From positions 1-40,541 of the IMG/VR virus record IMGVR_UViG_3300043609_000044: a stretch of DNA of 40,541 nt; one strand, 5' to 3'. A program made the position numbers and the translations under genes. The DNA comes from a virus. The notes beneath the pieces were generated by a model. The model did not search any database, was not told the origin of the DNA, and saw only the letters and a list, made by a program, of their open reading frames with translations. Positions 2,736-40,541 of the stretch are shown here, piece by piece; the stretch's first letter is position 1, and the number at the start of each line of letters is the position of its first letter.

Positions 2736-3400
2736 CCGCGCACGCCATGACGGACGGCCACGTCTTCGTCGAAGCCCTCGCACGGCGCCTCTGGCGGCCG
2801 GGTAGCGTGGACGTGGACGACCTGGTGCAAGACGGCTTGATCGGCCTCATGGACGCGGCCCGACGCTTCGACCCAGCGCGCGGGATCGCCTTCGACACCT
2901 TCGCCTACGCACGGGTCCGGGGGGCCATGATCGACAACTGGCGCCGAGCGTCCTGGCCGAGATCGATACGCCGCGCGCGCCGGGAGCTGGCCGCCGCACG
3001 CGTCCTGTTGCGCCAGGAGTTAGGAGCCGAGCCGACGGTGACGGAACTCGCCATGCGGACGGGACGGCCAGTGGTGAATGTCACGCGTCTCCTGCAGCGG
3101 ATCGGCCATATAGAGCAGCCTGATCCGCCGCCACCGGTCCCCACGCCAGACGTGCTCTACGCCGAGGACGAAACCCGCTCGCGGGTCCGGCGCGCCGTGG
3201 CGGCGCTGCCCGCCCGCGAGCGCCAAGTGGTGCAGGCGTACTATTTCACCGAAATGCGTCAGGCGCGTCTGAGCGCGGTCATGGGGATCACGCCTGGCCG
3301 CATCTCGCAGTTGCATACGCGGGCGCTCGGGCGTCTGCGCGCGGCCCTCACCGTTCCGCCGGAAGGTCTGGCGGCGGTCGTTCCTCCGAGTCTTGACTGA
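2717..3400 (+). CDS. Sigma-70 family RNA polymerase sigma factor (group 3/FliA-like architecture)
   Basis: Region 2: DLVQDGLIGLMDAARRFDPARGIAFDTFAYARVRGAMID. Region 4 HTH: LPARERQVVQAYYFTEMRQARLSAVMGITPGRISQLHTRALGRLR. Confidence 0.85.
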   Translation: MVETVVAAHAMTDGHVFVEALARRLWRPGSVDVDDLVQDGLIGLMDAARRFDPARGIAFDTFAYARVRGAMIDNWRRASWPRSIRRARRELAAARVLLRQELGAEPTVTELAMRTGRPVVNVTRLLQRIGHIEQPDPPPPVPTPDVLYAEDETRSRVRRAVAALPARERQVVQAYYFTEMRQARLSAVMGITPGRISQLHTRALGRLRAALTVPPEGLAAVVPPSLD

Positions 3401-8046: not shown

Positions 8047-8057
8047 GTCGTCCTTCC

Positions 8058-9221
8058 TTACTTCGGCGCGTTGAGCCGGCGATCGAGTTCTTTTTGCAGT
8101 TCGTCATCCAACTGCTTCCGCCAGTCGAGGCCCAGCCGGTCGGCGTTGGTGTTCGCCGTGACGTCAATGCCGTAGCGGTTGGTCGTGTTCTGCATCTCGC
8201 CGAGATACTTCCGCAGCGCCGTATCGTCCATCCCGAGCATCTTCTGAATTTCCGTCGCGTACCGCTGGTTGGCATTCTGCTCGTGGCCCAGGGACTCTTC
8301 GATATTGAACCCTCGGTTGCGAAGCGCCTCATCCATCTTCGCGAGTTGAAGTTGTAAGGCCTGCGACTGCTCGAATTGGCCCTGCGACTGCGCGAGCGTA
8401 ATGGCCTGCATGATCTCCGCACGCCGGGCCGCCATGACCTGGTTCGCCTGGTCACCGGCATACCCGGCCGTGTTCTCGCCGGCCGCTTGCCGCAACGCCT
8501 CAACGTGACCACTCATGCCGCCGCTGTTTTGGAGGCCATTCAGGCCGCTTTGTTCGGCTTCACCGGCCTGCGCCAGATCCGCGCGGCGCATTTGCTCATT
8601 GCGGAAGGCGGCGACGGCCGGACTGTTGTTGACGTTCGCTGCCGCCTCTTCGGGCGTCTGTCCCGTCAGGAGCCGCATGAGCTGTTGCCGGTACGCCTCG
8701 TCGATCGTGGTCGGTGGGCCGTCGTCAATGACGTGCTCAATGGTGTCGCCTTTGAACGTGCCGGTGCCGGGGCCCGTCCCTGCCGGGGCGGCGATCGGCT
8801 GGCCGGTGGCCATATCAATTTCAGGACTGTTCGGGTCCGCGTCCGGGTGGTTGAACGGCACGAAGCCGCCGTTCTTGGAACGCACGAATTTCAGGTGCGG
8901 GCCTTCGGCTTCGGGCGCGGCGGGGGCGGACGGGGCCGCAGGCGTATTCAATAAGGACGTGATCGTCTCGCGGTACACGTCAGTCGGCGCGGTGGGCGCG
9001 GTGGCCGTCACAGGCGGCGCAGGCGCGGCGGTGACGGGCGTCTCGGCCGGTTTATACCCGCCTTCGGGCAGCGCATTCGGGTCCGTCTTCGGCGCGACGG
9101 CGTCGTCCATCCACTGGTTGCCGATCCACTTGCCCGGGCCCTTCGCATACGACGGCGGCGGGGGAGGCGGCGTGTTCTGGTACCCCGCCAGCCGTTCTTG
9201 TTCGGGGGACGTATACGGCAT
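8058..9221 (-). CDS. Pro/Gln-rich virion protein, unknown
   Basis: ATG start. The upstream gene's TAA stop overlaps this ATG (TAATG at 9221). The N-terminal GYQNTPPPPPPSY motif is shared with the next gene. Confidence 0.65.
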   Translation of the reverse strand: MPYTSPEQERLAGYQNTPPPPPPSYAKGPGKWIGNQWMDDAVAPKTDPNALPEGGYKPAETPVTAAPAPPVTATAPTAPTDVYRETITSLLNTPAAPSAPAAPEAEGPHLKFVRSKNGGFVPFNHPDADPNSPEIDMATGQPIAAPAGTGPGTGTFKGDTIEHVIDDGPPTTIDEAYRQQLMRLLTGQTPEEAAANVNNSPAVAAFRNEQMRRADLAQAGEAEQSGLNGLQNSGGMSGHVEALRQAAGENTAGYAGDQANQVMAARRAEIMQAITLAQSQGQFEQSQALQLQLAKMDEALRNRGFNIEESLGHEQNANQRYATEIQKMLGMDDTALRKYLGEMQNTTNRYGIDVTANTNADRLGLDWRKQLDDELQKELDRRLNAPK

Positions 9222-9670
9222 TACTTCCTCCCCAGCAGATCGAGATGCACCTGGCGGGTGCGCGGCGAGTCCCCGCCTTGCTGCTGCGCCTGGAGTTCCG
9301 CCATCACTTGCGCCAGCACGTCGGACGGCGGCGGCCCGGCCTGCGACAAGTCCGCCGACGGGTCACTCATGTTGGTCATGTACGGCGACTTCGACGCGGA
9401 CGCCTTCGGCGCGACGGGGGTATTGCTGCCCGTCCCCGGCGCGTCCCCGAGCCGCTGATCCCAATACGGCGTGTTCGCCGTCCAGTCGGGGTGCGACTGC
9501 AGATAACTGTCGAACAGTTGGCCGTTGAACCAGGGCGTGTCGGCGAAGTTTTGCAGATACGACGACCGGCCTTCCGGCGTGTTCTGGTAGCTCGGCGGCG
9601 CATTCGGCCGCGCCAGTGGGTCATTCGGATCGTTCGGATCGACAGGCGGACGGAAGGGGGAGGTCGCCAT
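9221..9670 (-). CDS. Hypothetical virion protein
   Basis: TAATG coupling at both ends. Contains the PPSYQNTP motif. Confidence 0.6.
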   Translation of the reverse strand: MATSPFRPPVDPNDPNDPLARPNAPPSYQNTPEGRSSYLQNFADTPWFNGQLFDSYLQSHPDWTANTPYWDQRLGDAPGTGSNTPVAPKASASKSPYMTNMSDPSADLSQAGPPPSDVLAQVMAELQAQQQGGDSPRTRQVHLDLLGRK

Positions 9671-10437
9671 TAGCCAGTCACCTCAAAGGTCGCTGAGACC
9701 ATGACGTGGGCGGCCGTCGTGACCGCCCACGCCGCGAACGTGAGCTTCTGGAGTTGGATCACCGTCTGCCCGGGGAAGCCAAAGACGAAGCCCGACGAGG
9801 TATACGGTCCACCCTCACTGAAAATGAACGGCAGTTGAAACCGTCGCGCGATCTGATAGCCGGCGGGGAGCGCAATGGTAAGCGTCACCGGGGCCCCGGT
9901 GATCTCCGTCCCCGCCGCCGCGACCTGATAGTGCATGGTCTGACCGATCAGCGTCCACTGCTGGTACTGCATATCCACGCTTTGCACGACCCAGGTATTC
10001 CCTGCGCCGACGGCGGCAAAGTCCGCCGCGTTGAACGGGACATCCTGCCAGTCGCCCATGGCGACGGTTCGGCCCCGCTGATACACGCCGTCGCTCACGC
10101 GGAGCCCCAAGCCGACCCCGCCCACCTGGCCGACGCGGGCCGCCTCCACGTTGTTATAGAGGACGGTGAGCCACGGGGTGGTGCCGCCAGGGGTCGGCGT
10201 GATCGCGATCTGTGTCCCTTTGGCGATCGTGCGCCGGAACGACGCGGGCGCCAAGCGTTCGTCGCGCACCGTGACCGGCCCGTCCACCAGGACGCTCGAC
10301 GCCGTGATCGCCCCATGGCCGCCCTGCGCGTTGTGCTGCTGGCCGAGATAGGCGTTCAACTTCGCGACGAGTCCGTCCAATTCCTGGGCGGTTGTCTCGC
10401 TGAGTGTGGCGGGGTTATCGAGATAGGGCATGGCCAT
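9670..10437 (-). CDS. Tail-associated beta-rich protein (fibre/spike-like)
   Basis: Start MAMPYL at a TAATG overlap. Beta-rich composition. Follows the large tail protein. Confidence 0.6.
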   Translation of the reverse strand: MAMPYLDNPATLSETTAQELDGLVAKLNAYLGQQHNAQGGHGAITASSVLVDGPVTVRDERLAPASFRRTIAKGTQIAITPTPGGTTPWLTVLYNNVEAARVGQVGGVGLGLRVSDGVYQRGRTVAMGDWQDVPFNAADFAAVGAGNTWVVQSVDMQYQQWTLIGQTMHYQVAAAGTEITGAPVTLTIALPAGYQIARRFQLPFIFSEGGPYTSSGFVFGFPGQTVIQLQKLTFAAWAVTTAAHVMVSATFEVTG

Positions 10438-12422
10438 TACCGCGCCCCCGTTTCGAGTTCGTCGGCGCCGATCCATTGATCGAGTTCAAACGTCTGGTCG
10501 AGCGGTTCGCCGTCGCCGATCGTCAGTTGCAGCGCGATGAGGTCGGCGATATCGGTCGCGTCAAAGAACCGGCGCACCCGCGACTCGGCCCCACTCGGCA
10601 CGAGCGACTGGGTGCTCGCGACCGAGGCCTGGCCGAAGTCTTTCGTGAGGGCCTGGGTAATGGTGGCGGCGCCGGCTTTCGCCACGAGATAGGCTTCCAT
10701 GAGGCGCTTGCGCCGCCGGAGCGTCCCCCCCGTGAAGTACCTCGACGCAATGGACCCACGAAACGCGGTGCCGGCGTCGGTGTTCAGCGTCCCGTCCTGA
10801 CGCAGCAGTTGTTGTGTCCCGGTCGCGACGGTGAAGTTGCCGACATACGGCACCGTCGCGATCGGCCGCACGGCGGCCAGCGTCTTGGCAAACATGAGGG
10901 CGCAATGCGCTTGGGCCAGAATGCCGTCGTACACCGACCACCCGTACCGGAGGATCGACGCCCCTTCCATGCGCCCGCGCGCCACGTCGAGCACGAGCAG
11001 GGTATTCGGCCGGCCGCTCGTGCCGGTCGCCACCCACCACAGCACGAGTTTACGCCGGCCGTCATACACGCCAAACGCGATCAAGGCCGCATCCAGGTTC
11101 ACGGTGCGCCAGATATCGGCCACGTCCTTCCCCATCCACTCCATCGTCCGGCCGACGCTGATCCGGCGCGGCCCGTCGTCCGGGTCGAGGAAATACAGGC
11201 ACGGCTGGCCGTCCTGATCCTCGCCGATCACTTGCGACCAGTGACTGACCGAGCCATAGGCCGTCGTCATGACGACACGCGCAAACGGCGCGATCGGATC
11301 CCCGGTCGGCACGAGCATGTAGATCCCTTTGCTTTGAAAGGCATACATGCGGTTGTTCAAGGGCCCCGAGAGGCCCCGGTCCACGCCGCCGCCGCCCAGC
11401 GGCGAGCAGTCGATCCAGCCCTGCTGGGTCAGCGTGTTTGACACGCGTTCGTCGTCGCCGGTCTCGGAACTCCCGAGCGCCGGGGTGAAATAGACGCGGC
11501 CAGGGACAGGTGGCATGGCGTCCCCAGCGGCGGTTTCCCACACGCCAAAGCCAAACAGGTGCAGACCGTCCGACCCCACGAATTTCACGGACGGAAACGG
11601 CGTATCCGCCCCCACGAGCGGCGAGAGCGCGCCGAGCGCGTAGTCCACCGGGTTGACGGTGTCGAAAAAGTCCGTCGGGCCGGTGTAGGGCAGATCGCCA
11701 GACAGTTGGTAGTAGGCCAAGTCGTCGGCCGAGGCGTGGTACTGCAAGTGCGTGTCGCCCTCGCCGGGGGCGCCATTCGGCTGGAGGTGGACGGACGTGC
11801 CCGTGCCAGACGGCGTGAACGTGGTCGCCGCGCTCAGGTTCGACTGACTCAGGACGACGCCGCCGACGATGCGTTTGACCTGGAGCCGGTAGTAGCGCAC
11901 GACGGCGGCATACGTGCCGACGCCACTATCGCTCGCAAGGGGCGCGTTTGGGGCCCGTATCCCCGTGCGGCGAATGGCGCCACCCCCATACACCGGGTCA
12001 TAGACATGCAGGCGGTTGACGGACGAGTTGTAGGCAATAAAGAGTTTGCCGTGATGCTGGACGAACGAGGTCAGATACGCACGGTTCGGGTCTTCGTAGG
12101 CATCCCCCAAGGCCCCTAAGGGGAGTTTGATGGCCGCCGCCACGGGGATGCGAAAGATGGACCCGGTGGTATCGACAATGAAGAGTTCTTCTTTCGTCTC
12201 GTCCTGCCCCGGCAGAAACGCCGCCATCGCGTAATAGCCGACGACGGGGTCGCCGGTGAGCGTGACGGCGACCGAGCCGTCGCGCTTCTTGCCGAGCGCG
12301 CCCGTAAAGCGCCAGTTCAGCGCCTCGACGGCCATATCCTCTGGCACGACGAGCGGGCTGTCCCAGCCGTTTCGGCCGTTGCAGACCAACCACTCTAGGG
12401 GGCGCGTCTGTTGCGTGGCCAC
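10437..12422 (-). CDS. Large tail protein (nozzle/tubular-B-like by size and position)
   Basis: 661 aa, GTG start. Sits between the adaptor-like gene and the internal-protein block. Assigned by synteny only. Confidence 0.6.
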   Translation of the reverse strand: MATQQTRPLEWLVCNGRNGWDSPLVVPEDMAVEALNWRFTGALGKKRDGSVAVTLTGDPVVGYYAMAAFLPGQDETKEELFIVDTTGSIFRIPVAAAIKLPLGALGDAYEDPNRAYLTSFVQHHGKLFIAYNSSVNRLHVYDPVYGGGAIRRTGIRAPNAPLASDSGVGTYAAVVRYYRLQVKRIVGGVVLSQSNLSAATTFTPSGTGTSVHLQPNGAPGEGDTHLQYHASADDLAYYQLSGDLPYTGPTDFFDTVNPVDYALGALSPLVGADTPFPSVKFVGSDGLHLFGFGVWETAAGDAMPPVPGRVYFTPALGSSETGDDERVSNTLTQQGWIDCSPLGGGGVDRGLSGPLNNRMYAFQSKGIYMLVPTGDPIAPFARVVMTTAYGSVSHWSQVIGEDQDGQPCLYFLDPDDGPRRISVGRTMEWMGKDVADIWRTVNLDAALIAFGVYDGRRKLVLWWVATGTSGRPNTLLVLDVARGRMEGASILRYGWSVYDGILAQAHCALMFAKTLAAVRPIATVPYVGNFTVATGTQQLLRQDGTLNTDAGTAFRGSIASRYFTGGTLRRRKRLMEAYLVAKAGAATITQALTKDFGQASVASTQSLVPSGAESRVRRFFDATDIADLIALQLTIGDGEPLDQTFELDQWIGADELETGAR

Positions 12423-12425
12423 GCC

Positions 12426-13409
12426 TCACCACCTGCCGGATGGGAACGCCACGCCGTTGTGGTCGAGGTTGTTGCTCCGGTCGTGGAGACGGCCCACGCG
12501 CGGACGATAGTCCGGGGGAAAATTGATCCGGTCGCGTAACGACTTCAACTTCTCTGTGTACCCGGCCTGCGCCATGGCGAAACGGCTATCGTCGCGGTAT
12601 TCGTACTCACGCATTCTCCCGAAGTCCGCGAGGATGTCCTGAAAGTCCTCGGGGACGAGCGGGATGGTATTAGTCGTGGACAAGTCCTGAATGGACAGCG
12701 TCCCGTCCAGTTGATAAATACGCGCGTCTGACGGCGTGGGCCAGAGCCGAATGCCGAGGTACTGCACGGTGAGGTTTGGTGCCTGAATCGACGCCAGCCG
12801 GTGTTCGGGCGTGAGCAGGGTGTTCGAGTCGTAGAGTTGCACCGACCCCACGCAGGGCGCGCTCAATTGCAGGGATTGAATCGCGTCCACGAAGACGTCA
12901 ACGAGCACGGGCGTCGTGCCCGCGAGCGTCACCGTCGCCAGGTGGGTATCGGTGTCGATGTTATCGACGTTCCGCATCGTGCGAACCGTGAGCGTTTGCG
13001 TGATATCGAGGGGACTGACGCTCGTGACGTAAATCGAACTCCGGTCGGGGTCGCGTTGCACCGGGTGCAAACCAATGGGGATGTAATGGGTGGGTGTGCC
13101 GCTGCTGTTTTCTTGCGGATCAATCGTGCGGAACTCGTCGAGTGTCATGAGCCGCAGCCGGATCGCGCTCGTCGTATCGACGAGGTGGGAAATTTGGACG
13201 ATATTCTGCGGCACGCCGTAGTTCTTGATGGCGGCGAGTGACGTGAAGGTGACGTTGGCTAGACGCAGCGGCAGCATTTCCGGCAGCGACAGGAGTTGAC
13301 GGTAGCCATCGTTCAAAAAACGGGTCAGCCGCGTCGTCACGACGGCCGAAGGAATGGCGTCGTACCCGAGGTCGCTTTGGAGCGCGGCGAGTAAGTCATT
13401 CAAGGTCAT
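12426..13409 (-). CDS. Tail adaptor/tubular-A-like structural protein
   Basis: 327 aa. Assigned by position in the late operon. No named motif. Confidence 0.55.
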   Translation of the reverse strand: MTLNDLLAALQSDLGYDAIPSAVVTTRLTRFLNDGYRQLLSLPEMLPLRLANVTFTSLAAIKNYGVPQNIVQISHLVDTTSAIRLRLMTLDEFRTIDPQENSSGTPTHYIPIGLHPVQRDPDRSSIYVTSVSPLDITQTLTVRTMRNVDNIDTDTHLATVTLAGTTPVLVDVFVDAIQSLQLSAPCVGSVQLYDSNTLLTPEHRLASIQAPNLTVQYLGIRLWPTPSDARIYQLDGTLSIQDLSTTNTIPLVPEDFQDILADFGRMREYEYRDDSRFAMAQAGYTEKLKSLRDRINFPPDYRPRVGRLHDRSNNLDHNGVAFPSGRW

Positions 13410-13414
13410 GGCAA

Positions 13415-15811
13415 TTACGCAAACGGATATGTCAGGCCCGCGCCCGCGTTGTAGAGCGTCGTGCGCTCGGCGGGCGTGAGCACCCGTCGCCAGAAGCCGA
13501 CTTCGTCCAGCAAGCCATCAAACGAGAGGCTGCCATCGCTTCTCGCGCCGAGGACGAACGGGACGGCCGAGGCGGTGGGTTGTAAGACGGTGGACGTTTG
13601 CACGGCGGCCCCGTTGTTCATTTGCATAAAGAGGACATCGGCGGCAATGTCCAATCCGCACACAAAAAAGGCCCACGTACTGACGGTGATGGCTGGAGAC
13701 GCCGCCGCCGCCACCCCGTTAATGAGGATGACTAATTGGTTGTCTTGGGTGCGGACCTCAAAGAAACTGCTGTCTTTGAAGATCACCAACGAAAAGGAGG
13801 GCAGCGTTTCCGGCCGCATCCATCCAGCGAAGGTGAAGTCCGTCGCGCTGAGATCGAACGTCGCATTATTGGCACAGGACAGGTATTGCACCGAGTCAAA
13901 TTCGAGATCGCAGGCGTTGCCAATCTTCCCAGCGACCCCCACAGGCGCATTCGTCGGGGTCAGGTGATTGGTGCCGACGGCATCCACGCGCGTACCCGAC
14001 ACCTCGTCCAATTTCCAATAACTCGTCAGGCCCGTGAGAAGACTCGACGGTGCCGTGAGCCCCGTGACGACGAGCGCGCCCTGGTCGTCCGTCCGTCCGC
14101 GCAGGTTCAGGAGCGGCGACGGGCCACTCGTCAGCGTCCCGGCGGGGCCAGACGTGACGATGAGCGCGCCGGTTTCGTCCGTGCGGCAGAGGAGGTTCCC
14201 GAGGTCGGTGAGCGGCCCGAGCACGCCCGCCGTGACCGACGCCACGCGCAGCGACCCCTGATCGTCCGTTGTCACGCGCAAATTCCCGAGCGGGGTGCGC
14301 GGCGTGCGGAGCGCGCCCGCCGTCACACTCGTCACTTGCAGCCCTGCGTCCGTCGTCTCGCCGCAGAGGTGCGGAAAGATCGTCAGCGGGCCAATGACGC
14401 CTGGCGTGCCGGGGGTCGTGGCGGGCACCACGACGACGGCGCCGTGCTCGTTCGTCTTGCCGTGCTTGTTGCCGAGTTTGGCTTTGATGTGGGTATTCGC
14501 GGGGGGGCCGGGCGGCTCCGGGGCGGCGAACACCGCGAGCGAGGCGGCATAGATGCCGGAATTGGTGATCGTCCAGGTCACGCTCTGCGTCGTCCCGCCA
14601 GGACTCGTCAGCACGCGACTGTCGCCTTCGCCATAGGCGGCGTTCGCGCCACTCAATAATTCGTGCTCCTGCATCCACGGCGGCGAGACCGACTCGACGG
14701 TGATCGACGATTGCGGGACGCCGGGCAGCGTGATGAGCACGCCGACGGCGAACGCTTGTGACGCGGCGGTCTGCAGGGCGGCAGTCGTGCCAGAGGTCGG
14801 CGTCAGTCCGCTCGCCGCCCCGTTGCCGACCACGCGGTCCACTTGGAACGCGCCAGTGAAGCCGCCGACCTCCAGCGCCCGCCCCGTGATCGAGACATTC
14901 GTGCCATTGAGCGCGGCCGTGATGGTAAACGAGCTGCCGGTTGCCGTGACGGCCAGACACGCGAAGATGGCGGCATGGAGCGCGCTCTGGGTCTGGTCTT
15001 GCACGAGCACGTAGGTGTTGCCGAAAGTATCGGTGATTTGCGCCGCCGTGAGCACCGTGCCCGTGCCATTGAGCGACAGCAACAGGATGATGGCATTGCC
15101 GAGGAGGGGTGGGGAGGCGAACGTCACCGTGGCGGTCGGGTTCAGGACCGTCGAGGTTTGCGGAGTTCCTTGTCGCCGCGCCAGGCCCGTCACCAGCACC
15201 CCCGGCCGAAACACGGCCAGCGACACGGCGTTCTCTGCGCTCGTCGTCCACGACCACGTCGGATTGATGGCCGCCGCCGTGCCTTGGACCAGATAGCCCT
15301 GCCCGCCATTCAGGGCCGTCCCCGCCGCGCCCGCGACCGTCACCGCCGTCAGTGCGGAGTTGACCGAGATCGCTTGGGGCACGGTCGCGAGCGACACGCC
15401 ACTGATAATGAGTGATCCGTTCGTGGTGGGCGTCAGGCTCCCGGTCGCCACGCTCGTGCCGGTCGATCCGGCCGCGCCATTTTGCGACTCGAAGATGGGC
15501 ACGAACGTATCGGTGAACGCGAGGACGACCATCCCGGCAAAAATTGAGGCCCCACTCACCGTAAAGGTGTGCCCTGGGCCTACCGCTGGCGCGAGCGCGT
15601 AATAGAGCCGGTGTTTCGCCGTCGATCCCGTCGTCCGTTCCGTGAGCGGCGTCCACGGATTGCCCTTGGAGTCACTCACCGTGCTGAGTGTGGCGAAGTA
15701 GGCCACACTCAGGACGATGAGATTGGCCCCCGTCGTATTAATGGCACTGGTCGTCGTCCCATTCGTGCCGGGCGGCGTACTGGTGACGGACGTCACGAGG
15801 GAAATTGCCAC
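13415..15811 (-). CDS. Tail fibre / receptor-binding protein with C-terminal LamG (concanavalin-like lectin) domain
   Basis: C-terminus: SYWKLDE..G..VD.VG ... FTFAGWM ... FDGLLDEVGFWRRVLTPAERTTLYN, a typical Laminin_G_3 pattern. Two paralogous N-terminal domains, both ending SLAVF. Confidence 0.8.
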   Translation of the reverse strand: MAISLVTSVTSTPPGTNGTTTSAINTTGANLIVLSVAYFATLSTVSDSKGNPWTPLTERTTGSTAKHRLYYALAPAVGPGHTFTVSGASIFAGMVVLAFTDTFVPIFESQNGAAGSTGTSVATGSLTPTTNGSLIISGVSLATVPQAISVNSALTAVTVAGAAGTALNGGQGYLVQGTAAAINPTWSWTTSAENAVSLAVFRPGVLVTGLARRQGTPQTSTVLNPTATVTFASPPLLGNAIILLLSLNGTGTVLTAAQITDTFGNTYVLVQDQTQSALHAAIFACLAVTATGSSFTITAALNGTNVSITGRALEVGGFTGAFQVDRVVGNGAASGLTPTSGTTAALQTAASQAFAVGVLITLPGVPQSSITVESVSPPWMQEHELLSGANAAYGEGDSRVLTSPGGTTQSVTWTITNSGIYAASLAVFAAPEPPGPPANTHIKAKLGNKHGKTNEHGAVVVVPATTPGTPGVIGPLTIFPHLCGETTDAGLQVTSVTAGALRTPRTPLGNLRVTTDDQGSLRVASVTAGVLGPLTDLGNLLCRTDETGALIVTSGPAGTLTSGPSPLLNLRGRTDDQGALVVTGLTAPSSLLTGLTSYWKLDEVSGTRVDAVGTNHLTPTNAPVGVAGKIGNACDLEFDSVQYLSCANNATFDLSATDFTFAGWMRPETLPSFSLVIFKDSSFFEVRTQDNQLVILINGVAAAASPAITVSTWAFFVCGLDIAADVLFMQMNNGAAVQTSTVLQPTASAVPFVLGARSDGSLSFDGLLDEVGFWRRVLTPAERTTLYNAGAGLTYPFA
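14042..14380 (-). repeat. Four tandem peptide repeats inside the fibre gene
   Basis: Units of the form PL.NL(R/C).(T)TD(D/E).G(A/S)L.V(T/A)S..AG.L at aa 476-590. Confidence 0.6.
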
Positions 15812-15859
15812 GCTAGGCCATTCGCTTGCTGGCTGCCATTGGCCGGGCCATCCTGCCGC

Positions 15860-16450
15860 CTAGAACTCGGCCTCGACGGGTTTGGCCGCGTCCGCCACGG
15901 CTGGACTCTGGTTCACGCGCGTGGCGAGACTCGACACCTGCTGTTTGAGCGCGCGAATTTCCTGCTCCATCTTGATCGGGTCGATCGCGTCCTCGCCGTT
16001 CAAGAGTTCCCGAATCGCGAGCGGCACGTTCTGCGGCAGCCCCATACGGTCGTCAATGGACTGGTGCGGCAGCATGATGAACCGGCGCTTCGGTGTGACT
16101 TCCGCGCCAAACTTCGGGTCGCCGCGCCACACCTTGGACGTCGTCACGCTGTTGAACGCGAGAATTTCGTCCGGCGTCAGTTGCGACTCTTCGGCGCGCG
16201 TCCCCAGCCACCAGGTGTCACGATCGAGTTTCGGTTTCGGCCGCGCCTCTTCCCCCTCGGGATAGGAAAACGGGCTAATGCCGGGGGTATAGGCGTTGCT
16301 CTGGCGCACGGTGCGCTGTTGCGCCTGGACCATGGCCATCATCGCCTCGGCGGCCGAGCCGTCGCCGGTGCTGCTGGCCTTGATCGCGTCGAGGAGTTGC
16401 GTGAATTGCTCGCCGGTCATGGTGACGGCGGGCGTCGGTTTGGTGTCCAT
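15860..16450 (-). CDS. Virion protein, unknown
   Basis: Internal ATG (MDTKPT) chosen because the longer track ORF overlaps the upstream gene and is Arg-rich nonsense. Confidence 0.6.
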   Translation of the reverse strand: MDTKPTPAVTMTGEQFTQLLDAIKASSTGDGSAAEAMMAMVQAQQRTVRQSNAYTPGISPFSYPEGEEARPKPKLDRDTWWLGTRAEESQLTPDEILAFNSVTTSKVWRGDPKFGAEVTPKRRFIMLPHQSIDDRMGLPQNVPLAIRELLNGEDAIDPIKMEQEIRALKQQVSSLATRVNQSPAVADAAKPVEAEF

Positions 16451-16469
16451 ACGTGTCCTTTGTCCGCAC

Positions 16470-16507
16470 GAGGCGGGAGGGCCAGGCGGCGTGGCCTCTC
16501 CCGCCTC
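16470..16507 (-). other. GC-rich stem-loop (14 bp, one bulge) directly after the capsid-associated gene
   Basis: GAGGCGGGAGGGCC ... GGCCTCTCCCGCCTC with no U-tract. Possible attenuator or mRNA stabiliser. Confidence 0.5.
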
Positions 16508-16524
16508 TCGCCTCGCTCGGGGGG

Positions 16525-17289
16525 TTATTCCAAGCGAATCATGACGGCCTGCACGCGACCGCCCACACCGGTCACGAGCATGGCGCCGACCACCTGGGTC
16601 GCCGCTGCCGCGCCGTCCACGACCGCCGCGCCGGCCGCCGTGCCGGGGACGACGATCGCGAGGCCGACGCCGGGCGTCCCGGCAATGAGCGCCGCGCCGA
16701 CGCCGCCGGTCTGAATCCAGTCGTAACTGCCGGCCGGGGTGGCAAACGTCGCCACGCCGACACACGCACCCGTGAGCGTCGTGATCGGGTTCTGGATGAC
16801 GCCGTTGTAGGGGTTGGCGACCAGGTCGATCTTGCTCGTGGCCACCACGATCTGGATGTCGATCGGCTGGCTGAGCGTGAGCGTGAGTTGCGCGCTGGCA
16901 TTGGCGGCTGGGTGGGAGGCGACCTGCAGCCGCTGGCCGATCCCCGGGCCGCTACTCACAATGATCCAGCCTTGCGCGTACTGGTTGGCGGTCGCCGCCG
17001 TGGCGCCGAGGACGACGGTGATCGACAGCGCGCCGACGTCGTAGGTGGTCCCGCCAATCGGGGCCATGTTCTGGTGCAGCGGCACCTCGGCCGGGGCTTG
17101 CAGCCAGTTGCCGGCGACGAGCGCCACCGGCGCGTAGGCGTAGCGGTAGATATTGCCGAACTGATCGACCGCTTTCGTGCCGAGGGCGTGTTTGCCGCCG
17201 GGGGTGACGCCACCCGAGGCGACGGGGGTGAAGGGGCTTCCGAGTCCTTGTGCAGTGGACTGCGGGTCGCCAGCAAGAGAGAGTGCCAT
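16525..17289 (-). CDS. Capsid-associated protein (decoration/cement candidate)
   Basis: Start MALSLAG preceded by AGGAG. Gly/Ala/Val-rich beta protein immediately after the major capsid gene. Confidence 0.6.
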   Translation of the reverse strand: MALSLAGDPQSTAQGLGSPFTPVASGGVTPGGKHALGTKAVDQFGNIYRYAYAPVALVAGNWLQAPAEVPLHQNMAPIGGTTYDVGALSITVVLGATAATANQYAQGWIIVSSGPGIGQRLQVASHPAANASAQLTLTLSQPIDIQIVVATSKIDLVANPYNGVIQNPITTLTGACVGVATFATPAGSYDWIQTGGVGAALIAGTPGVGLAIVVPGTAAGAAVVDGAAAATQVVGAMLVTGVGGRVQAVMIRLE

Positions 17290-33057: not shown

Positions 33058-34128
33058 TCAGGCCCCCTTCTTGATCGGCGTCTTAACGAGGCGCATAGTG
33101 GGCGTCGGTGCGGGAGGCGTGACAGCCGGCGGAAACGCCGCATCCAGCGCCGACTTGGCCCGTGTGCTGGCCGCCGCCCGACTGTACCGCCATGTCTGCT
33201 GCGGCGAGGTGTGGAGGGCCAGTTCGGCCGCCCCCCGTTCATCGGCCGAGTTCTCAACGACGGTCGTGATGAACCGGTGGCGCAAATCGTACACGCGAAA
33301 CCGACGCACGCCAGCCTTGTCGCAGGCGCGGTGCAGGAGGCTGTGGAGCGCGGAGCCGCTAAACGCGCCCCAGGCGTTCACGTCCCGAAACATCTCCAAG
33401 GCGGTCACGGCCGCCGGACTCACCGGGACCGTGCGCGGCCTCGTGCCGCCGCCTTTCTTCCGTCCCGGCGTGGTCACCGTGGAGGTGCGCCAGTGAATAT
33501 CCTGGGGCCGCAGGCGCTTGAGCACCGCACTCGGCCAGCCGGTGGTGAACAACACGTGGAGACGCGCCTGGCTCTTGCTCGGCCCCTTCTTCAACTGCCG
33601 CAGCGCACCAAAGGCGGCCCGCACCACCTCCGGTTCGGGTAAATCAAGCGGGAGTTCTTCCTCGTGATACTTCGGCACGCCTCGTGCGGGGTTCAGGCCC
33701 TCACGGCCGTTAAACACCGTGTAGAAATCCATCAATGCCGTGCGATAGACATTCAGGGTGCCGGGTTTCTTGCCGGACTTGCGGAGAGCTTCCAAGTGCT
33801 GACGGACTTCTACACTCGTCACGCTGTCGAGGGTCCGCTGCCGCCCAAGCCGATCTCGCCACCATTCAATCCGATGCATCCGGTCGATCAGCGTCGGCAT
33901 CCCGGCTTTGGCTTTCTCATACGCTTTCACTTTCCCGCCAAACGTCAACGCCTTCTCAACTTCCGAGACAATGCCGACTTGCGCATTCGCGCGGAGGGTC
34001 TTTAACTCCTCGCGGAGCACCTGGATCGAGGTGTCGCCGGAGAAATTCTTGGAGACGAACTCGCCTTTGACGCGGGCATAAATTTGATACCCCGTCCCTT
34101 GACGGCGAATGCCTTTAGCAATCTTCAT
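33058..34128 (-). CDS. int: Tyrosine recombinase / phage integrase
   Basis: YDLRHRFITT and LALHTSPQQTWRYS (box II H-x-x-R and catalytic Y). N-terminal SAM-like domain. Start MKIAKG preceded by AGGAG. Confidence 0.9.
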   Translation of the reverse strand: MKIAKGIRRQGTGYQIYARVKGEFVSKNFSGDTSIQVLREELKTLRANAQVGIVSEVEKALTFGGKVKAYEKAKAGMPTLIDRMHRIEWWRDRLGRQRTLDSVTSVEVRQHLEALRKSGKKPGTLNVYRTALMDFYTVFNGREGLNPARGVPKYHEEELPLDLPEPEVVRAAFGALRQLKKGPSKSQARLHVLFTTGWPSAVLKRLRPQDIHWRTSTVTTPGRKKGGGTRPRTVPVSPAAVTALEMFRDVNAWGAFSGSALHSLLHRACDKAGVRRFRVYDLRHRFITTVVENSADERGAAELALHTSPQQTWRYSRAAASTRAKSALDAAFPPAVTPPAPTPTMRLVKTPIKKGA

Positions 34129-34257
34129 TGGTGTACACACTCCTGGCAGTTGCTTTCCGCTACTGTCTGTTGTCGAAGGGAAAAGGGTTATCCAGTCTTC
34201 TTGGCAGTCTTGAGGGACCACCGCATCAGGGCCGCCAGGGCGGCGGCTTGGGTCGTC

Positions 34258-35431: not shown

Positions 35432-35525
35432 ACGTGTCCGCTCGGCTCGACGTCGGCCGTCGCGGGTTGCTTCGCTTGCGGCGACCGTGGGACCGGCGAG
35501 TCGGGCGGCACAAACCGAGGAACTT

Positions 35526-37016
35526 ATGCGACTGACGCTGATAGACCTATCGAGTTTGGCTTATCCCATCTGGCACATGGCCGGGAACGACCCGAACGAA
35601 AACGCCGTGTCCGACCAGCTCGTGGCGCGCGTCCGTGCGCTCGGCGACGGCCACACGGCGATCTGCTGTGACGCCGGCCGTTCGTTTCGCTGCGATATTT
35701 CCGCCGACTACAAAGCCAACCGGAAAGTCGAGGAACGCGCCGTCCTGTACCACCAGATCGACCTGGCGCTCGACCGGCTGCGTGGGGACGGCTTTCCCAT
35801 TTGGTTCGCCAAAGGGTTCGAGGCTGACGACGTGATCGCGTCCGCGTGCAACAAAGCGGCGGAAGACGGCCACGACGTCCTGATCGTGAGTGCCGACAAA
35901 GACCTGCTGCAGCTCATTGTCAATGGCGAACCCGGCGCCGGCAGCGTCTGGGCCAAGTCGCTGAAAACCGGCGACCTGATCGACGAGGCCGCCGTCGAGG
36001 CGCGGTTCGGCGTCACCCCGGCGCAAATGCGCGACTACCTGACGATCGTCGGCGACCAGAGTGACAACGTCAAAGGCGTGGCCGGCATTGGCGAGAAAGG
36101 CGCGGCGGCGCTCCTGCGGCTGTATGGCTCGCTCGACACGATCTACCGGGACTTGGACACCCTGCCGCTGAAGCCGTCCCAGGTGCTCGCCCTCAAGGCC
36201 TTCGAGTCGCGCTTCCACGAAGTCCGCAGCCTGATCACCCTCCGCACCGACGCCCCGGTGCCGTTCGAGGAAATTCTGGAACCCCGCACGCCGAAGGACG
36301 TGCCGCCTATGGTGGACGAACCCGTTGACGAACCACTGGACGATATCGACGAGGCCTTGCCGACCGTGCCACCGCCACCCCCGGCGCCTGTCCCAGACCC
36401 GCCTGGTGCCGCTGTGGCGAGCGCAGAACCTGACAAGCCACCGACCCAAGCCCCAGGTGTCAAAAACCCGACAGGCGGCGTCCTGACCGTCCTGCCGCGC
36501 AACGGCCACGAGGACACCGACTGGAAAGGCCGGCTGGAACCCACGTCCATGGACGAGGCCATGCGGCTGGCGAAATTGGCCTTTGACTCGAAGCAGTTTT
36601 CCGCCTACGGCACGCCGCAGGCGGTGCTCATGACGCTCATGGCCGGACGGGAACTCGGCCTAACGGCCATGGCGAGTTTGAGAGCGCTTCATATCGTAGA
36701 AGGCAAGCCGACGATGAGTGCGGATCTCATGCGCTCCCTCGTGCTGAAGTCCGGGGCGGTGAAGTATTTCCGCTGCGTCGAACGCACGAACGAACAGAGC
36801 ACCTGGGAAGCACAGCGCGGCGACGACCCGCCCCTGTCGCTGACGTTCACGATGGAGGACGCCAAGATGGCCGGCGTCATCAAGCCCGGCAGCGGCTGGG
36901 TGAAGTTCCCGGCCGACATGTGTTCCGCTCGCGCCTCCTCGAAACTGGCCCGCCTCGTCGCGCCTGACGTCCTGGCCGGTATCTACCTGCCGGAAGAAAT
37001 TCGAGAGAACCAATGA
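35526..37016 (+). CDS. Fusion: FEN/Pol I-type 5'-3' exonuclease (N) + Red-beta/RecT-like single-strand annealing domain (C)
   Basis: N-terminal part: FRCDISADYKANR, GFEADDVIAS, IVSADKDLLQL, DNVKGVAGIGEKGAAALL. Pro-rich linker. C-terminal part: GRELGLTAMASLRALHIVEGKPTMSADLM ... GWVKFPADMCSARASSKLARLVAPDVLAGIYLPEE, similar to the Red-beta C-terminal signature. Confidence 0.8.
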   Translation: MRLTLIDLSSLAYPIWHMAGNDPNENAVSDQLVARVRALGDGHTAICCDAGRSFRCDISADYKANRKVEERAVLYHQIDLALDRLRGDGFPIWFAKGFEADDVIASACNKAAEDGHDVLIVSADKDLLQLIVNGEPGAGSVWAKSLKTGDLIDEAAVEARFGVTPAQMRDYLTIVGDQSDNVKGVAGIGEKGAAALLRLYGSLDTIYRDLDTLPLKPSQVLALKAFESRFHEVRSLITLRTDAPVPFEEILEPRTPKDVPPMVDEPVDEPLDDIDEALPTVPPPPPAPVPDPPGAAVASAEPDKPPTQAPGVKNPTGGVLTVLPRNGHEDTDWKGRLEPTSMDEAMRLAKLAFDSKQFSAYGTPQAVLMTLMAGRELGLTAMASLRALHIVEGKPTMSADLMRSLVLKSGAVKYFRCVERTNEQSTWEAQRGDDPPLSLTFTMEDAKMAGVIKPGSGWVKFPADMCSARASSKLARLVAPDVLAGIYLPEEIRENQ

Positions 37017-37834
37017 GTCCGCGACTGCGCGTCCTCTCGCTCGGCGCCGGGGTGCAGAGCACCACGCTCGCGCTCATGGCGGCGGCGGGGGAGATCGGCC
37101 CCATGCCGGACGCGGCGATCTTTGCCGATACCGGCTGGGAACCGACAGCCGTCTACGCGCACCTCGCGTGGCTGCAGTCCGGCGTGCTGCCGTTCCCGAT
37201 CCAGGTCGTCACGGCGGGGAATATCAAAGACGGCATTCTCGCGCGCCGACGCACCGACGGGGGCCGCTATGCGGCCGTCCCCTGGTACAACCTCGGACCC
37301 GACGGCACGACCGGGATCGGCCGGCGGCAATGTAGTAGTGAATACAAGCTCGACCCGATCATGCACGAGACGCGGCGGCTCCTCGGCACCACACGACGCG
37401 GCCGTCTGCCGAAAGGGGCCGCAGAAGTGTGGATCGGGATCTCGGTGGACGAAGCGGCGCGCATGAAACCCGCGCGCCAGCAATGGATGACCAACCGCTG
37501 GCCGCTCATTGAACAGAATATCTCGCGCACCGGCTGCCTCACCTGGATGCGCGACCACGGCTACCCAGAACCGCCGAAGTCCTCCTGTATCGGGTGCCCG
37601 TTTCACAGCGATCGCATGTGGCTGGCGATGCGGCAGGACGCGCCCCAGGAGTTTGCGGACGCGGTGGCCATGGATGCGGCCCTTCGCCTCGGGGACGCGC
37701 CGGGGATGCAGGCCACCGAGTTTATGCACGACGCGCGCATCCCGCTCGCAGACGCCGTCGAACAGGCCGCCCAGAAGAAGCGCGAACAGCCAGACCTATT
37801 TCAGAACGAATGTGAGGGTATTTGTGGCGTCTAA
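37013..37834 (+). CDS. PAPS-reductase-family (PP-loop ATP pyrophosphatase-like) protein
   Basis: VLSLGAGVQSTTLALM PP-loop variant, CIGCPF cysteine pair. ATGA overlap start. Confidence 0.75.
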   Translation: MSPRLRVLSLGAGVQSTTLALMAAAGEIGPMPDAAIFADTGWEPTAVYAHLAWLQSGVLPFPIQVVTAGNIKDGILARRRTDGGRYAAVPWYNLGPDGTTGIGRRQCSSEYKLDPIMHETRRLLGTTRRGRLPKGAAEVWIGISVDEAARMKPARQQWMTNRWPLIEQNISRTGCLTWMRDHGYPEPPKSSCIGCPFHSDRMWLAMRQDAPQEFADAVAMDAALRLGDAPGMQATEFMHDARIPLADAVEQAAQKKREQPDLFQNECEGICGV

Positions 37835-38306
37835 CGCTGAAGTCCTGCTCACCGAAATTCGAGACGCGCTGGTCGAACTCGTCTCGCTGTCGAAGGTGAA
37901 ACCCAATATCCTGCCGCCCGGCGTCAAACCCACCGTCGCCTGGTCGGCGCACGAGAAAACGATCGCCAGCGACCACGAACTCGATCACCCGACGTATGGC
38001 GACCCGGTCGTGAAAAGTGCGCCCCGTGACTGGAATGGCCCCTTCGTCCCCGGCGCCAAAATGAGCGAGCACCCAGCCGAATTCCTCGACCTGCTGGCCG
38101 ACCGCTACGACTACTTCGCCACGAAGAACGATCGGGAAAAGGCCGTCACCGAGAAGGGGTACCCCAAGTCGAAATTCGATCGGGCTGCTGCCGCCAAGGC
38201 GCGCGGCTGGGCCGCCCGCATTCGCAAAGGCTACAAACCGCCGGCCCCGCCGCCCATGGATGACGAGACGCCGGACTGGGGTATGGCAAATGAGCCGCCG
38301 TTCTGA
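37824..38306 (+). CDS. Hypothetical protein
   Basis: GTG 37824 (or 37812), overlapping the upstream stop. 160 aa. Confidence 0.55.
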   Translation: MASNAEVLLTEIRDALVELVSLSKVKPNILPPGVKPTVAWSAHEKTIASDHELDHPTYGDPVVKSAPRDWNGPFVPGAKMSEHPAEFLDLLADRYDYFATKNDREKAVTEKGYPKSKFDRAAAAKARGWAARIRKGYKPPAPPPMDDETPDWGMANEPPF

Positions 38307-39063
38307 TCGCGCTTACTACAACGAGTTTGATCCGCACGCCGCCGCGTGGCTGCGCGCACTGATCGACGCCGACGCGATCATGGCGGGAGACGTGGACGAA
38401 AGGTCGATCGAGGATGTCCGAGCAGTTGACCTTCTGGGATACGTCCGCTGCCACTTCTTCGCCGGTATTGGCGGGTGGGACTACGCCTTGCGCCTCGCGG
38501 GATGGCCTGGCGATCAACCCGTGTGGACCGGCAGTGCCCCTTGTCAGCCCTTTAGTGACGCCGGCGAGCAGCAGGGCGCGGACGACGTGCGTCACCTCTG
38601 GCCGGTATGGTTCGGGCTCATTCGCGAGTGTCGCCCTCACGTCGTCTTTGGCGAACAGGTTGCGGCAGCAATGCGGTACGGCTGGCTCGACGCTCTTTCG
38701 ACAGACCTGGAAGCGGCAGGGTACGCCGTGGGGGCGGTGGTGCTGGGCGCACACAGCGTGGGGGCGCCCCACCTCCGACAGCGGCTCTATTTTGTGGCAG
38801 ACCATTCCCGGCCCCACACCGACCGCCGTGAAGCCCACGGGGGGGATCTCGGTGTGCCGGTTCGGCGGCTCGGGCGCGAGACGGACCATGAAGCACTTCC
38901 TGACGCACCGGGAACTCTATGGGCCGATCAACCCCGCCCTCCTGTCGTACTTGATGGGGTTTCCGCCAGTGTGGGAGAAGTCTGCGGCTACGGCAACGCG
39001 ATCATGCCGCACGTCGCGGCGGAAGTAATTCGCGCTTATATGGCCGTGGAGGCCACCCCATGA
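38290..39063 (+). CDS. DNA (cytosine-5) methyltransferase, short phage type
   Basis: HFFAGIGGW (motif I), SAPCQPFS (IV), FGEQV (VI variant), GAPHLRQRLYFVA (VIII), GYGNAI (X). Confidence 0.85.
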   Translation: MSRRSDRAYYNEFDPHAAAWLRALIDADAIMAGDVDERSIEDVRAVDLLGYVRCHFFAGIGGWDYALRLAGWPGDQPVWTGSAPCQPFSDAGEQQGADDVRHLWPVWFGLIRECRPHVVFGEQVAAAMRYGWLDALSTDLEAAGYAVGAVVLGAHSVGAPHLRQRLYFVADHSRPHTDRREAHGGDLGVPVRRLGRETDHEALPDAPGTLWADQPRPPVVLDGVSASVGEVCGYGNAIMPHVAAEVIRAYMAVEATP

Positions 39064-39413
39064 CGAACCAGTCCCACACGCACCGCTGCCGCCGCTGCGG
39101 CACGACCTACGACTGCGACGGCGAATGGGTGCCGGCCGAGCAGGCCGACGGCTACCTCAAAGCCGCCTGCTACTTCTACGACCTGCACCAGATCAACCTG
39201 TGCGAGACGTGCGCCAAGCCCGTCCTGCCTGACGCCGACGACCTGGCGCGCATGCTGGCGCACCCGCAGTTCGGCGCCTTACGCCGCTTCAAGGACGACG
39301 ACTGGCTGGTGGTGTTCGACGAAGCGACCCACGGCCGCTCCTGGCGCGGCAACAGCCTGGCGGAAGTCGTCGAGAAATGGCGCGAACAGTACAGCCGGCG
39401 CGAGGTGGCCTAA
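39060..39413 (+). CDS. Zinc-ribbon hypothetical protein
   Basis: CRRCG ... CETC. ATGA overlap start. Confidence 0.6.
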   Translation: MTNQSHTHRCRRCGTTYDCDGEWVPAEQADGYLKAACYFYDLHQINLCETCAKPVLPDADDLARMLAHPQFGALRRFKDDDWLVVFDEATHGRSWRGNSLAEVVEKWREQYSRREVA

Positions 39414-39616
39414 TGTCACTCCTCACCAAGATCATGCACTGGCTCGGCGTGGACGACACGCCTGATCCGGCGTGGCGCAGCACCGGCTATCGCTACACGG
39501 CCACCGGCCACGACGAGGCGCGCGCCGCCGACACCGCCGAACGCCGCGACGAACTCGCCGCGCACCGACGCAAACTCGAAGCGCTGCGATCGAAACCGAC
39601 AAAGGGGACACGGTGA
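39413..39616 (+). CDS. Hypothetical small protein
   Basis: TAATG overlap start. Confidence 0.5.
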   Translation: MSLLTKIMHWLGVDDTPDPAWRSTGYRYTATGHDEARAADTAERRDELAAHRRKLEALRSKPTKGTR

Positions 39617-40541
39617 CGGACACACGCGCCGTTGAGAGCATTGTCTTTCGTGCCGATCTCTATCCTCGGATGGAGACGAGCGCCACGACGGTGCAGAAAT
39701 ATGCCGAGGATCTGGCTGTTCTCCCGCCGATCGAGATCAATCAACATGACGAACTGATCGACGGCTGGCACCGCTGGACGGCGCACCGGAAAACTAAAGC
39801 CGCGACGATCCCTGTGGTCGTCACGACAACCAGCGGCGAGGCGGAATTTCTCGAACTCGCCATTACGCGCAATGCGGCGCACGGCATGCAACTGTCCCAG
39901 GACGACAAGCGCGACATGGCCAGGCGCATCTACGGCGCAACCCCAGAACGCGAACGAGACGCCAAGAAGAAGGCGCTGGCGACCATTCTGAGCGTCAGCG
40001 ACCGCACAGTCCGCGAGTGGTTGAGCCGAGTGGATAAGGATGCTAAGGAAGCCAGGGACCAGAAAATCTTTGACCTCTGGTTGGCGTGCTCGACCCAGCA
40101 GGAAATTGCATCAGCAACGGGTATTGATCAAGGTGATCTGAGCCGCTTGGTTGCGACTTTTATGGAAATCGGCAACCTTGCCAAAAACCATAAAGCTACA
40201 GCCGAGCACGCGACGGACTTCGACCCCCCGCTCTACAACGTCTGGAAACAGCAGACCCGCACCGTCGGCAGCGCGCACTTTGGCAACTCCGAGGCGCGAT
40301 GGCTCGACAACCTGCTCTATCTCTACACCACGCCATTTGACGTGGTGATCGACCCCTTCGCTGGAGGCGGGTCCACCATTGACCTCTGCCAAAAGCGGTT
40401 CCGCCGGTATTTGGTGAGCGACCGGTTGCCCATCATTGAACGCGCCAAGGAGATCCGCCACCACGACGTCACCACCGGCCCCCTAAAGCCGCCGCAGTGG
40501 GGCGACGTGCGCCTGGTCTATCTCGACCCGCCGTACTGGAA
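39613..40541 (+). CDS. ParB-N (nuclease-like) domain fused to N6/N4 DNA methyltransferase, N-terminal part; continues at 1..470
   Basis: My own translation from GTG 39613 (GTGA overlap): IEINQHDELIDGWHRWTAH (ParB-like), an HTH-like middle, then VIDPFAGGGST (motif I). The ORF track omits it because the window ends before a stop. Confidence 0.85.
   Translation, partial: MTDTRAVESIVFRADLYPRMETSATTVQKYAEDLAVLPPIEINQHDELIDGWHRWTAHRKTKAATIPVVVTTTSGEAEFLELAITRNAAHGMQLSQDDKRDMARRIYGATPERERDAKKKALATILSVSDRTVREWLSRVDKDAKEARDQKIFDLWLACSTQQEIASATGIDQGDLSRLVATFMEIGNLAKNHKATAEHATDFDPPLYNVWKQQTRTVGSAHFGNSEARWLDNLLYLYTTPFDVVIDPFAGGGSTIDLCQKRFRRYLVSDRLPIIERAKEIRHHDVTTGPLKPPQWGDVRLVYLDPPYW
40415..40541. repeat. 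Terminal overlap, identical to 1-127
   Basis: Same as above. Confidence 0.95.

Follow-up and report, generated by a model that had tools for sequence, protein, structure and literature searches.

Known phosphorothioate (PT) systems require, besides a protein resembling 3'-phosphoadenosine-5'-phosphosulfate (PAPS) reductase, an ATPase, a cysteine desulfurase and a component for DNA recognition or nicking (PMC12707154; PMC12839542), and for DndC an iron–sulfur (Fe–S) cluster and a Cys dyad have been described (PMC10853773). A related domain is found on the phage side of the conflict: protein p0018 of vibriophage P5a_red is a fusion of a PAPS-reductase domain, at the N-terminus, with a Dam methyltransferase (MTase) (Piel et al., Nat Microbiol 2022; preprint 10.1101/2021.05.05.442762), and moving p0018 together with the adjacent p0019 into a related phage allowed growth on a Dnd host (10.1101/2021.05.05.442762). 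A 2026 paper cites the published work of Piel et al. for a phage PAPS reductase that promotes Dnd evasion, and places PAPS reductases in anti-defence operons (PMC13551039). Here we describe the early operon of a temperate phage represented by IMG/VR virus record IMGVR_UViG_3300043609_000044 (positions 1 to 40,541; this whole stretch of 40,541 nt is called the window below), where a PAPS-reductase-like gene (PAPS-like gene below), a C5-cytosine MTase gene and a gene for a ParB-N/helix-turn-helix (HTH)/N6-N4 MTase protein stand among recombination and small-protein genes. An earlier sequence-only reading of this cluster had raised two possibilities: elaborate DNA hypermodification or an anti-restriction function. 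We favour, at slightly better than even confidence, the view that three independent modules for anti-restriction or self-protection are stacked within the operon. The modular presence and absence of these genes among relatives is observed directly, while their anti-restriction function is suggested by genomic context and by analogy with the published anti-Dnd PAPS–Dam fusion.

The likeness to p0018 lies in the link of a phage PAPS-reductase-like domain with a DNA MTase and in its location within a region that related phages exchange; in the vibriophages, the swap changes the host defences that are escaped (10.1101/2021.05.05.442762). The window differs in that its PAPS-like protein is encoded by a separate gene of 273 amino acids (aa), and the MTases nearby are of the C5 and ParB-linked N6/N4 types, not Dam. 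The two cases are likened by description, and the relative found in oyster vibriophage 434O48-1 is only 27% identical to the window protein. The anti-restriction alternative fits, by analogy, the published anti-Dnd PAPS-domain/Dam fusion and its companion p0019 (10.1101/2021.05.05.442762). The genes under discussion are the following, in window coordinates:

34786 (start), plus strand: cro.
35043 (start), plus strand: g35043.
35487–37016, plus strand: FEN-RecT fusion gene, backbone; its stop codon overlaps the start of the PAPS-like gene.
37013–37834, plus strand: PAPS-reductase-like gene, 273 aa; accessory module 1.
37824–38306, plus strand: unk160, 160 aa, GTG start; backbone.
38290–39063, plus strand: C5-MTase gene, 257 aa (267 aa from the ATG at 38260); accessory module 2.
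39060–39413, plus strand: Zn117, 117 aa; backbone.
39413–39616, plus strand: p79, 67 aa (79 aa from the ATG at 39377); backbone.
39613–40541 joined to 128–470, plus strand: ParB-N/HTH/N6-N4 MTase gene (ParB-MTase), GTG start, 309 + 114 codons = 423 aa; accessory module 3.
467–1036, plus strand: g455, 189 aa, in GTGA overlap with the ParB-MTase stop codon.
1038–1319, plus strand: g1038, continuing the chain after g455.
2717–3400, plus strand: sigma-70 family factor gene (regions 2, 3 and 4), last in the early operon and just before the divergent structural genes; kept in the sister phages.
33058–34221, minus strand: integrase gene, a 387-aa open reading frame (ORF) named from its 59–60% identical sister-phage homologs with PF00589 and not from a scan of the ORF itself.

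The division into backbone and modules comes from sister phages, designated L170/L171 and L172, which are reached by tracing the homologs of unk160. The window and L170/L171 have in common int, rep, cro, g35043, FEN-RecT, unk160, Zn117, p79, g1688, g1038, the sigma factor gene and g3410, at approximately 44–78% amino acid identity; the p79 match is short and partial. Since unk160, Zn117 and p79 are kept in the sister phages, we assign them to the backbone. The PAPS-like gene, the C5-MTase gene of the window and the ParB-MTase/g455 pair are all missing from L170–L172. An unrelated 184-aa gene occupies the PAPS-like slot in L170/L171, and the C5-MTase of these phages is a different, full-length 353-aa PF00145 gene located elsewhere, after Zn117. 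The separate presence and absence of the genes identifies the PAPS-like gene, the C5-MTase gene and the ParB-MTase gene with g455 as three separately exchangeable insertions. unk160 lies directly after FEN-RecT in L172 and in a further locus, L173, and after the 184-aa gene in L170/L171; as it follows FEN-RecT in phages devoid of the PAPS-like gene, we reject it as a candidate partner of the PAPS-like enzyme.

The same independence is apparent from the relatives of the PAPS-like gene. We analyzed 163 loci carrying such relatives, made up of 160 (80 viral and 80 genomic) and three more. The neighbour counts rest on a home-made gene caller based on codon usage, chosen since simple ORF calling produced antisense shadow ORFs at high GC content. 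Homologs of unk160, Zn117, p79, the ParB-MTase of the window and g455 are found in none of the 163 loci. The neighbours differ even between relatives that are 79% and 71% identical to the window protein (DUF5131 versus an N6/N4 MTase). Altogether, the neighbours form 113 distinct clusters, the phage loci being very diverse, and match 76 Pfam families, of which the 25 most frequent include replication and recombination proteins, N6/N4 and C5 MTases, YqaJ, DUF5131, nucleases and Cro/Nin-type genes. Sulfate-assimilation families are encountered neither among these 25 nor among the operon proteins of the window, and the same is true of SspA, SspB and SspC. C5-MTases adjoin PAPS-like genes in several arrangements. 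As a separate observation, in prophage settings that are otherwise different, a DUF5131 gene (with a Cx5Cx2C motif; L001/L084, L090, L147 and L176) or a canonical radical SAM gene (PF04055; L002/L003) recurs at a distance of one to three genes from the PAPS-like gene; both are absent from the window.

About 60 of the loci resemble integrative and conjugative elements (ICE-like loci), as judged by neighbouring ArdC, ParB-like, DUF736 and DUF6878 genes. The anti-restriction gene ArdC occupies position −1 of the PAPS-like gene in 42 loci. The order ArdC, PAPS-like gene, ParB-like gene of approximately 700 aa is seen in L097, L123 and about 30 others, and in a second ICE-like group (L088, L108, L110 and L116) the ParB-like gene lies directly upstream of the PAPS-like gene. 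The two genes have seemingly stayed together while being rearranged, and we found no function described for the pair; that they adjoin in either order is the best indication of a functional link between PAPS-like and ParB-like proteins. The ParB-MTase family presents a different picture: in five loci with relatives of the window protein (L165–L169, from two other phage types) a g455 homolog follows directly downstream in each case, and a PAPS-like gene is nearby in none. The co-occurrence that had been proposed as a check on the cluster is not borne out for its own genes, the PAPS-like gene and the ParB-MTase gene each occurring without the other (0 of 163 and 0 of 5 loci). The PAPS-like gene is a stand-alone mobile gene of phage replication and recombination regions and of ICE-like loci.

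The cluster itself is real and not a chance pattern. All the genes named in the sequence-only reading are found on the plus strand at the positions given for them, and each junction from FEN-RecT through g455 overlaps, by ATGA, GTGA, TAATG, 11 nt or 17 nt. Such overlapping stop and start codons fit translational coupling. The overlapping junctions of the six genes described as coupled are confirmed, and the chain is longer than six: it starts upstream at FEN-RecT and crosses the contig junction into 467–1036 and 1038–1319. The crossing is apparent from a stretch of 127 nt that is identical at both ends of the window (1–127 and 40415–40541), whereby genes cut at the window end resume at the window start. 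Truncation of the last gene is ruled out by this terminal redundancy, the joined ORF being complete at 423 aa. The window is a complete temperate phage genome of 40,414 unique bases, assembled as a circle or with terminal redundancy.

The PAPS-like protein matches phrog_424 ('PAPS reductase') over residues 3–273 (E = 2.6e-39, 136.5 bits). Apart from a spurious metallo-beta-lactamase hit (E = 0.019), it has no Pfam or NCBIfam match at E ≤ 0.1, leaving PF01507, the NCBIfam CysH models and DUF3440 unmatched, and none of its more than 7000 homologs has a precomputed Pfam domain. The sole PADLOC match at E ≤ 1 is SspD (PDLC02782, E = 3.1e-8, 31.7 bits; this model has no curated cut-off), which aligns residues 7–247 of the protein with profile positions 3–218 of 277; the DndC and BrxP-type models are unmatched. 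A Foldseek search with the AlphaFold2 (AF2) model (mean predicted local distance difference test score, pLDDT, 88) returned 26 matches at E ≤ 1e-3, including CysH, LarE, GMP synthetase, TtuA and adenosine-5'-phosphosulfate (APS) reductase. CysH PAPS reductases are among the closest solved structures (E about 5e-5, template modelling score about 0.42–0.45), and the closest viral structural neighbours are phage 'PAPS reductases' (E = 4.9e-10). As modelled, the protein has a Rossmann-like AANH/PP-loop fold.

An alignment of 32 family members displays the invariant motifs SLGAGVQS, DTxWEP (DTGWEP in the window), RRQC107 followed by KxxP, and GIS.DE..R. The first of these is a PP-loop variant that replaces SGGxDS and has Gln where ATP-pyrophosphatases have Asp, as is also the case in CysH. 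Invariant cysteines are C175, the pair in SC192xGC195P and the C-terminal pair in C267xGxC271G; the window protein ends in ECEGICGV, and its E266 is nearly invariant. The protein is a probable Fe–S enzyme by these residues, with a cysteine layout resembling that of an APS-reductase/DndC-type Fe–S enzyme with a C-terminal cysteine dyad. The proposed assignment as PAPS reductase/DndC-like is supported by phrog_424, SspD and the Foldseek matches, the fold and motifs being those of the PAPS/APS-reductase and DndC/SspD group. Its description as a PP-loop protein holds for the fold and not for the canonical SGGxDS motif, in the place of which SLGAGVQS is found.

Comparison with SspD, DndC and BrxP reveals the same fold class, a nearly full-length match to SspD, and conserved cysteines compatible with the Fe–S cluster and Cys dyad of DndC (PMC10853773). 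The window nevertheless differs from these systems in having no DndD/SspC/BrxC ATPase, no DndE or SspB (DUF4007) and no desulfurase among its operon proteins, and from SspD and DndC in its SLGAGVQS P-loop, the lack of a DndC model match and its occurrence as a stand-alone mobile gene. The only solved structure found by sequence is PptA (PDB 21fy; E = 0.0027, hhalign E = 1.8e-6), a hypothetical protein of the T7-like Vibrio phage vB_VhaP_VH-5 that is encoded alone after the RNA polymerase gene. PptA is likewise the product of a stand-alone phage gene and has the SxG..S, C...K, GxTxEExxR and CxGC motifs and the C-terminal ECxxxC, but it is very distant, at 24% identity over 136 columns. We found no publication on this phage protein in the full-text literature.

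A comparison with IbrA/IbrB had also been drawn in the sequence-only reading, from the co-occurrence of ParB-like and PAPS-reductase-like domains. It applies to the relatives in alphaproteobacterial ICE-like loci, where members of the PAPS-like family directly adjoin a ParB-like gene in both orders. It does not extend to the window, where the PAPS-like protein matches neither PF01507 nor DUF3440 and the ParB-N domain, located five genes downstream, is part of an MTase fusion whose family occurs elsewhere without a PAPS-like gene. A literature search on IbrA/IbrB and plasmid leading regions yielded nothing usable.

The two different methyltransferases and the ParB-N domain that had been recognized in the cluster are recovered by PF00145, PF01555 and ParB-like PHROGs. 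The C5-MTase matches PF00145 (62.1 bits against a cut-off of 22), phrog_363 (E = 2e-66) and the DNA cytosine methylase models of PADLOC. The Pfam alignment spans motifs IV–VI only and the protein is short (257 aa), but motifs I, IV, VI, VIII and X are all present in the translation (FAGIGG, PCQ, EQV, RQR and GNA). The PHROG alignment of the version starting at ATG 38260 begins at residue 11. We also observe that the variable (target-recognition) region is very short. The gene has a low codon-usage score and a GC content at third codon positions of 0.69, versus approximately 0.75–0.92 in its neighbours, which fits recent acquisition.

The joined 423-aa ParB-MTase matches PF01555 with 35.7 bits against a cut-off of 26.7. 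FAGGGS precedes DPPYW in its sequence, so that motif I comes before motif IV in an order permuted relative to PF01555. The ParB-N domain of the window protein stays below the PF02195 cut-off (15.3 versus 26.3 bits) and is matched by ParB-like PHROGs (E = 2.8e-7); PF02195 is precomputed on many of its 70–78% identical homologs. These homologs number more than 2000, and the 120 listed are 414–458 aa long and 68–78% identical at 98–100% coverage, many with both PF02195 and PF01555. The g455 family comprises 357 representative clusters with invariant D40, E65, K67 and Q77. It has no match in Pfam, PHROG or PADLOC, and a PDB profile search gave chance-level matches only; read by eye, the D...ExK...Q signature makes g455 a putative PD-(D/E)xK nuclease. 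The ParB-MTase and g455 may thus form a conserved module of MTase and nuclease.

Among the backbone proteins, FEN-RecT (509 aa) matches PF02739 and PF01367 in its exonuclease part, as well as phrog_107 and phrog_561 (RecT-like); a Pro/Ala-rich linker joins the exonuclease to the RecT-like annealing domain, and the protein is 72–78% identical in L170–L172. It is an unusual one-protein module of 5'–3' exonuclease and annealase for recombination. unk160 has 27 homologs in the whole protein collection. Its AF2 model (pLDDT 76) is predicted to be helical; a PDB profile search returned nothing, and Foldseek gave no PDB match below E = 3. In our alignment of unk160 with its homologs, the proteins terminate in a run of acidic residues and then PF, SF or W (for instance DDSDIPF, ADDISF, NDPPF). 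This end resembles the tip of the C-terminal tail of single-stranded DNA-binding protein (SSB), which suggests a recombination accessory or an SSB-tail mimic. Of the two small proteins that had been taken for Zn-ribbon proteins, Zn117 retains this possibility: it has two CxxC pairs (C10xxC13 and C48xxC51), and all four cysteines are kept in the 62% identical homolog of L170/L171, making it a possible Zn ribbon, with no match in Pfam, PHROG, NCBIfam or PADLOC. p79 is rejected as a Zn ribbon, there being no cysteine in its 79-aa translation; it has no match in Pfam, PHROG or NCBIfam.

The phage is called temperate from its integrase and CI-like repressor. Profile matches identify the latter as well as a Cro-like protein and the sigma-70 family factor, and the genes for the major head protein and the large terminase are located on the minus strand. 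The GC content of the whole window is 64%, and the relatives of the phage's genes come mostly from alphaproteobacterial genomes; the host is probably a high-GC alphaproteobacterium. Megablast of the cluster region against 50,697 phage records revealed no nucleotide-level relative. Large structural ORFs on the minus strand at 4316–16765 (436, 553, 386, 660 and 326 aa) mostly lack a PHROG match at E ≤ 1e-5, the matches in this region being limited to the head protein, the terminase and one 797-aa protein. The phage lineage is sparsely covered by reference collections.

We propose that the segment from 35487 to 1319, across the circular junction, would constitute the early rightward operon of a temperate phage, on a backbone of cro, g35043, FEN-RecT, unk160, Zn117, p79 and, further on, the sigma factor. 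Three independently acquired modules in it would act on or protect the phage's own DNA. Module 1, a cysteine-rich PAPS-like enzyme related to SspD, DndC and CysH, would most likely counter PT-dependent or other modification-dependent host defence, by writing a sulfur mark on DNA or by interfering with host Dnd/Ssp components. Module 2 would be a compact orphan C5-cytosine MTase, and module 3 the ParB-N/HTH/N6-N4 MTase with its conserved downstream partner g455. Expressed together early by way of overlapping codons, the modules would mark or shield phage DNA during its replication from several restriction systems of the host simultaneously.

Several points weigh against this proposal. The phage is known from its sequence alone. 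The anti-Dnd precedent is a fusion from a distant subfamily that was moved with a second gene, and the PAPS domain alone is not proven sufficient. It counts in favour of the proposal that the density of MTase genes within ±3 genes of the PAPS-like gene is 0.027 per gene, versus 0.007–0.009 further away (approximately 3–4-fold), but the enrichment is weak after collapse to 70% identity clusters (8/35 versus 4/32 and 6/31). The adjacency of ParB-like and PAPS-like genes in ICE-like loci makes a functional link of module 1 with the ParB-N domain of module 3 conceivable. The P-loop Gln as in CysH, and the ECxGxCG end recalling ECGLH, leave room for sulfonucleotide-reductase activity. Finally, the ParB-MTase with g455 could be a phage-borne restriction–modification (R-M)-like or exclusion system rather than a means of self-protection.

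Some of these points belong to alternative explanations of the locus. The hypermodification alternative supposes a single multi-enzyme pathway: a complex modification of a base or of the backbone would be made stepwise by the PAPS-like enzyme, unk160, the C5-MTase, the small proteins and the ParB-MTase. It can appeal to the single chain of overlapping co-directional ORFs, the ICE-like adjacency of PAPS-like and ParB-like genes, the existence of the vibriophage PAPS-domain/MTase fusion and the C5-MTases beside PAPS-like genes elsewhere. However, the six genes do not travel together in the 163 PAPS-like loci, the sister phages or the ParB-MTase loci: the sister phages keep unk160, Zn117 and p79 without the PAPS-like gene, the C5-MTase or the ParB-MTase, and none of the 163 PAPS-like loci holds any of these three or the ParB-MTase. 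The 27 homologs of unk160, a protein without an enzyme-like fold, contrast with the more than 7000 of the PAPS-like protein, and profile searches of the operon proteins find no glycosyltransferase, TET/JBP, DpdA/TGT, hydroxymethylase, DndD/E, SspB/C or desulfurase. This makes the elaborate hypermodification by a six-gene set the least probable of the explanations considered here, and a highly improbable one. We find it very unlikely, too, that the PAPS-like gene is an auxiliary metabolic gene (AMG), a real PAPS/APS reductase boosting sulfate assimilation in the infected cell or lysogen. PHROG labels the family as an AMG, recent virome papers class such genes in the same way, while themselves noting the absence of experimental tests (PMC13369170; bioRxiv 10.64898/2026.02.18.706556), and CysH PAPS reductases provide the best solved-structure matches. 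An hhalign comparison of the family with E. coli CysH gives a colinear alignment of the P-loop Gln, DTG and KxxP motifs, which at a probability of 2.8% serves as illustration only. The alignment stops short of the C-terminus; by eye, a CxxC and the C-terminal Cys tail resemble those of APS reductases, C267-x-G-x-C271-G and the catalytic ECG[LI]H tail of CysH (ECGLH) being alike but not equal. Set against this are the unmatched PF01507 and NCBIfam CysH models, SspD as the sole PADLOC match, the extra invariant C175 and second C-terminal Cys, the anti-Dnd precedent, and a context of DNA metabolism and ArdC/ParB ICE-like regions with no sulfur-assimilation family among the 25 most frequent.

Unlikely, though quite conceivable, is a phage-borne R-M-like or exclusion module formed by the ParB-MTase and g455, perhaps with the C5-MTase too, that attacks competing DNA. 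g455 always follows the ParB-MTase in the loci examined, its invariant D...ExK...Q is typical of PD-(D/E)xK nucleases when judged by eye, and the phage is temperate by its integrase and CI-like repressor. Yet the nuclease assignment comes without a family or PDB-sequence match, the module is located within the early lytic operon, behind cro, and not in the position of a lysogeny-expressed moron, and orphan phage MTase is a common annotation for ParB-MTase fusions. For the PAPS-like enzyme, and with it the family to which PptA belongs, a more specific role may be considered, which we hold to be decidedly unlikely: that of a minimal sulfur-transfer DNA modifier which, alone or with a ParB-N partner and host IscS, would mark the DNA of phages or ICEs with sulfur, as PT or in another form, and which here would be recruited by the MTase-fused ParB-N domain. 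If true, one or two proteins would correspond to the four to five that make up the Dnd/Ssp machinery.

Virome studies report few genes as AMGs as often as phage 'PAPS reductases', which also serve as a basis for ecological conclusions. To this the present loci add comparative evidence that a PAPS-like subfamily is swapped in the manner of anti-restriction genes, without a link to sulfur assimilation. The sister phages with and without each module offer a clean natural comparison for working out what host defence is overcome by each module. Solving how the PAPS-like enzyme works chemically would decide if mobile elements possess a minimal route leading to DNA phosphorothioation, or one directed against it.

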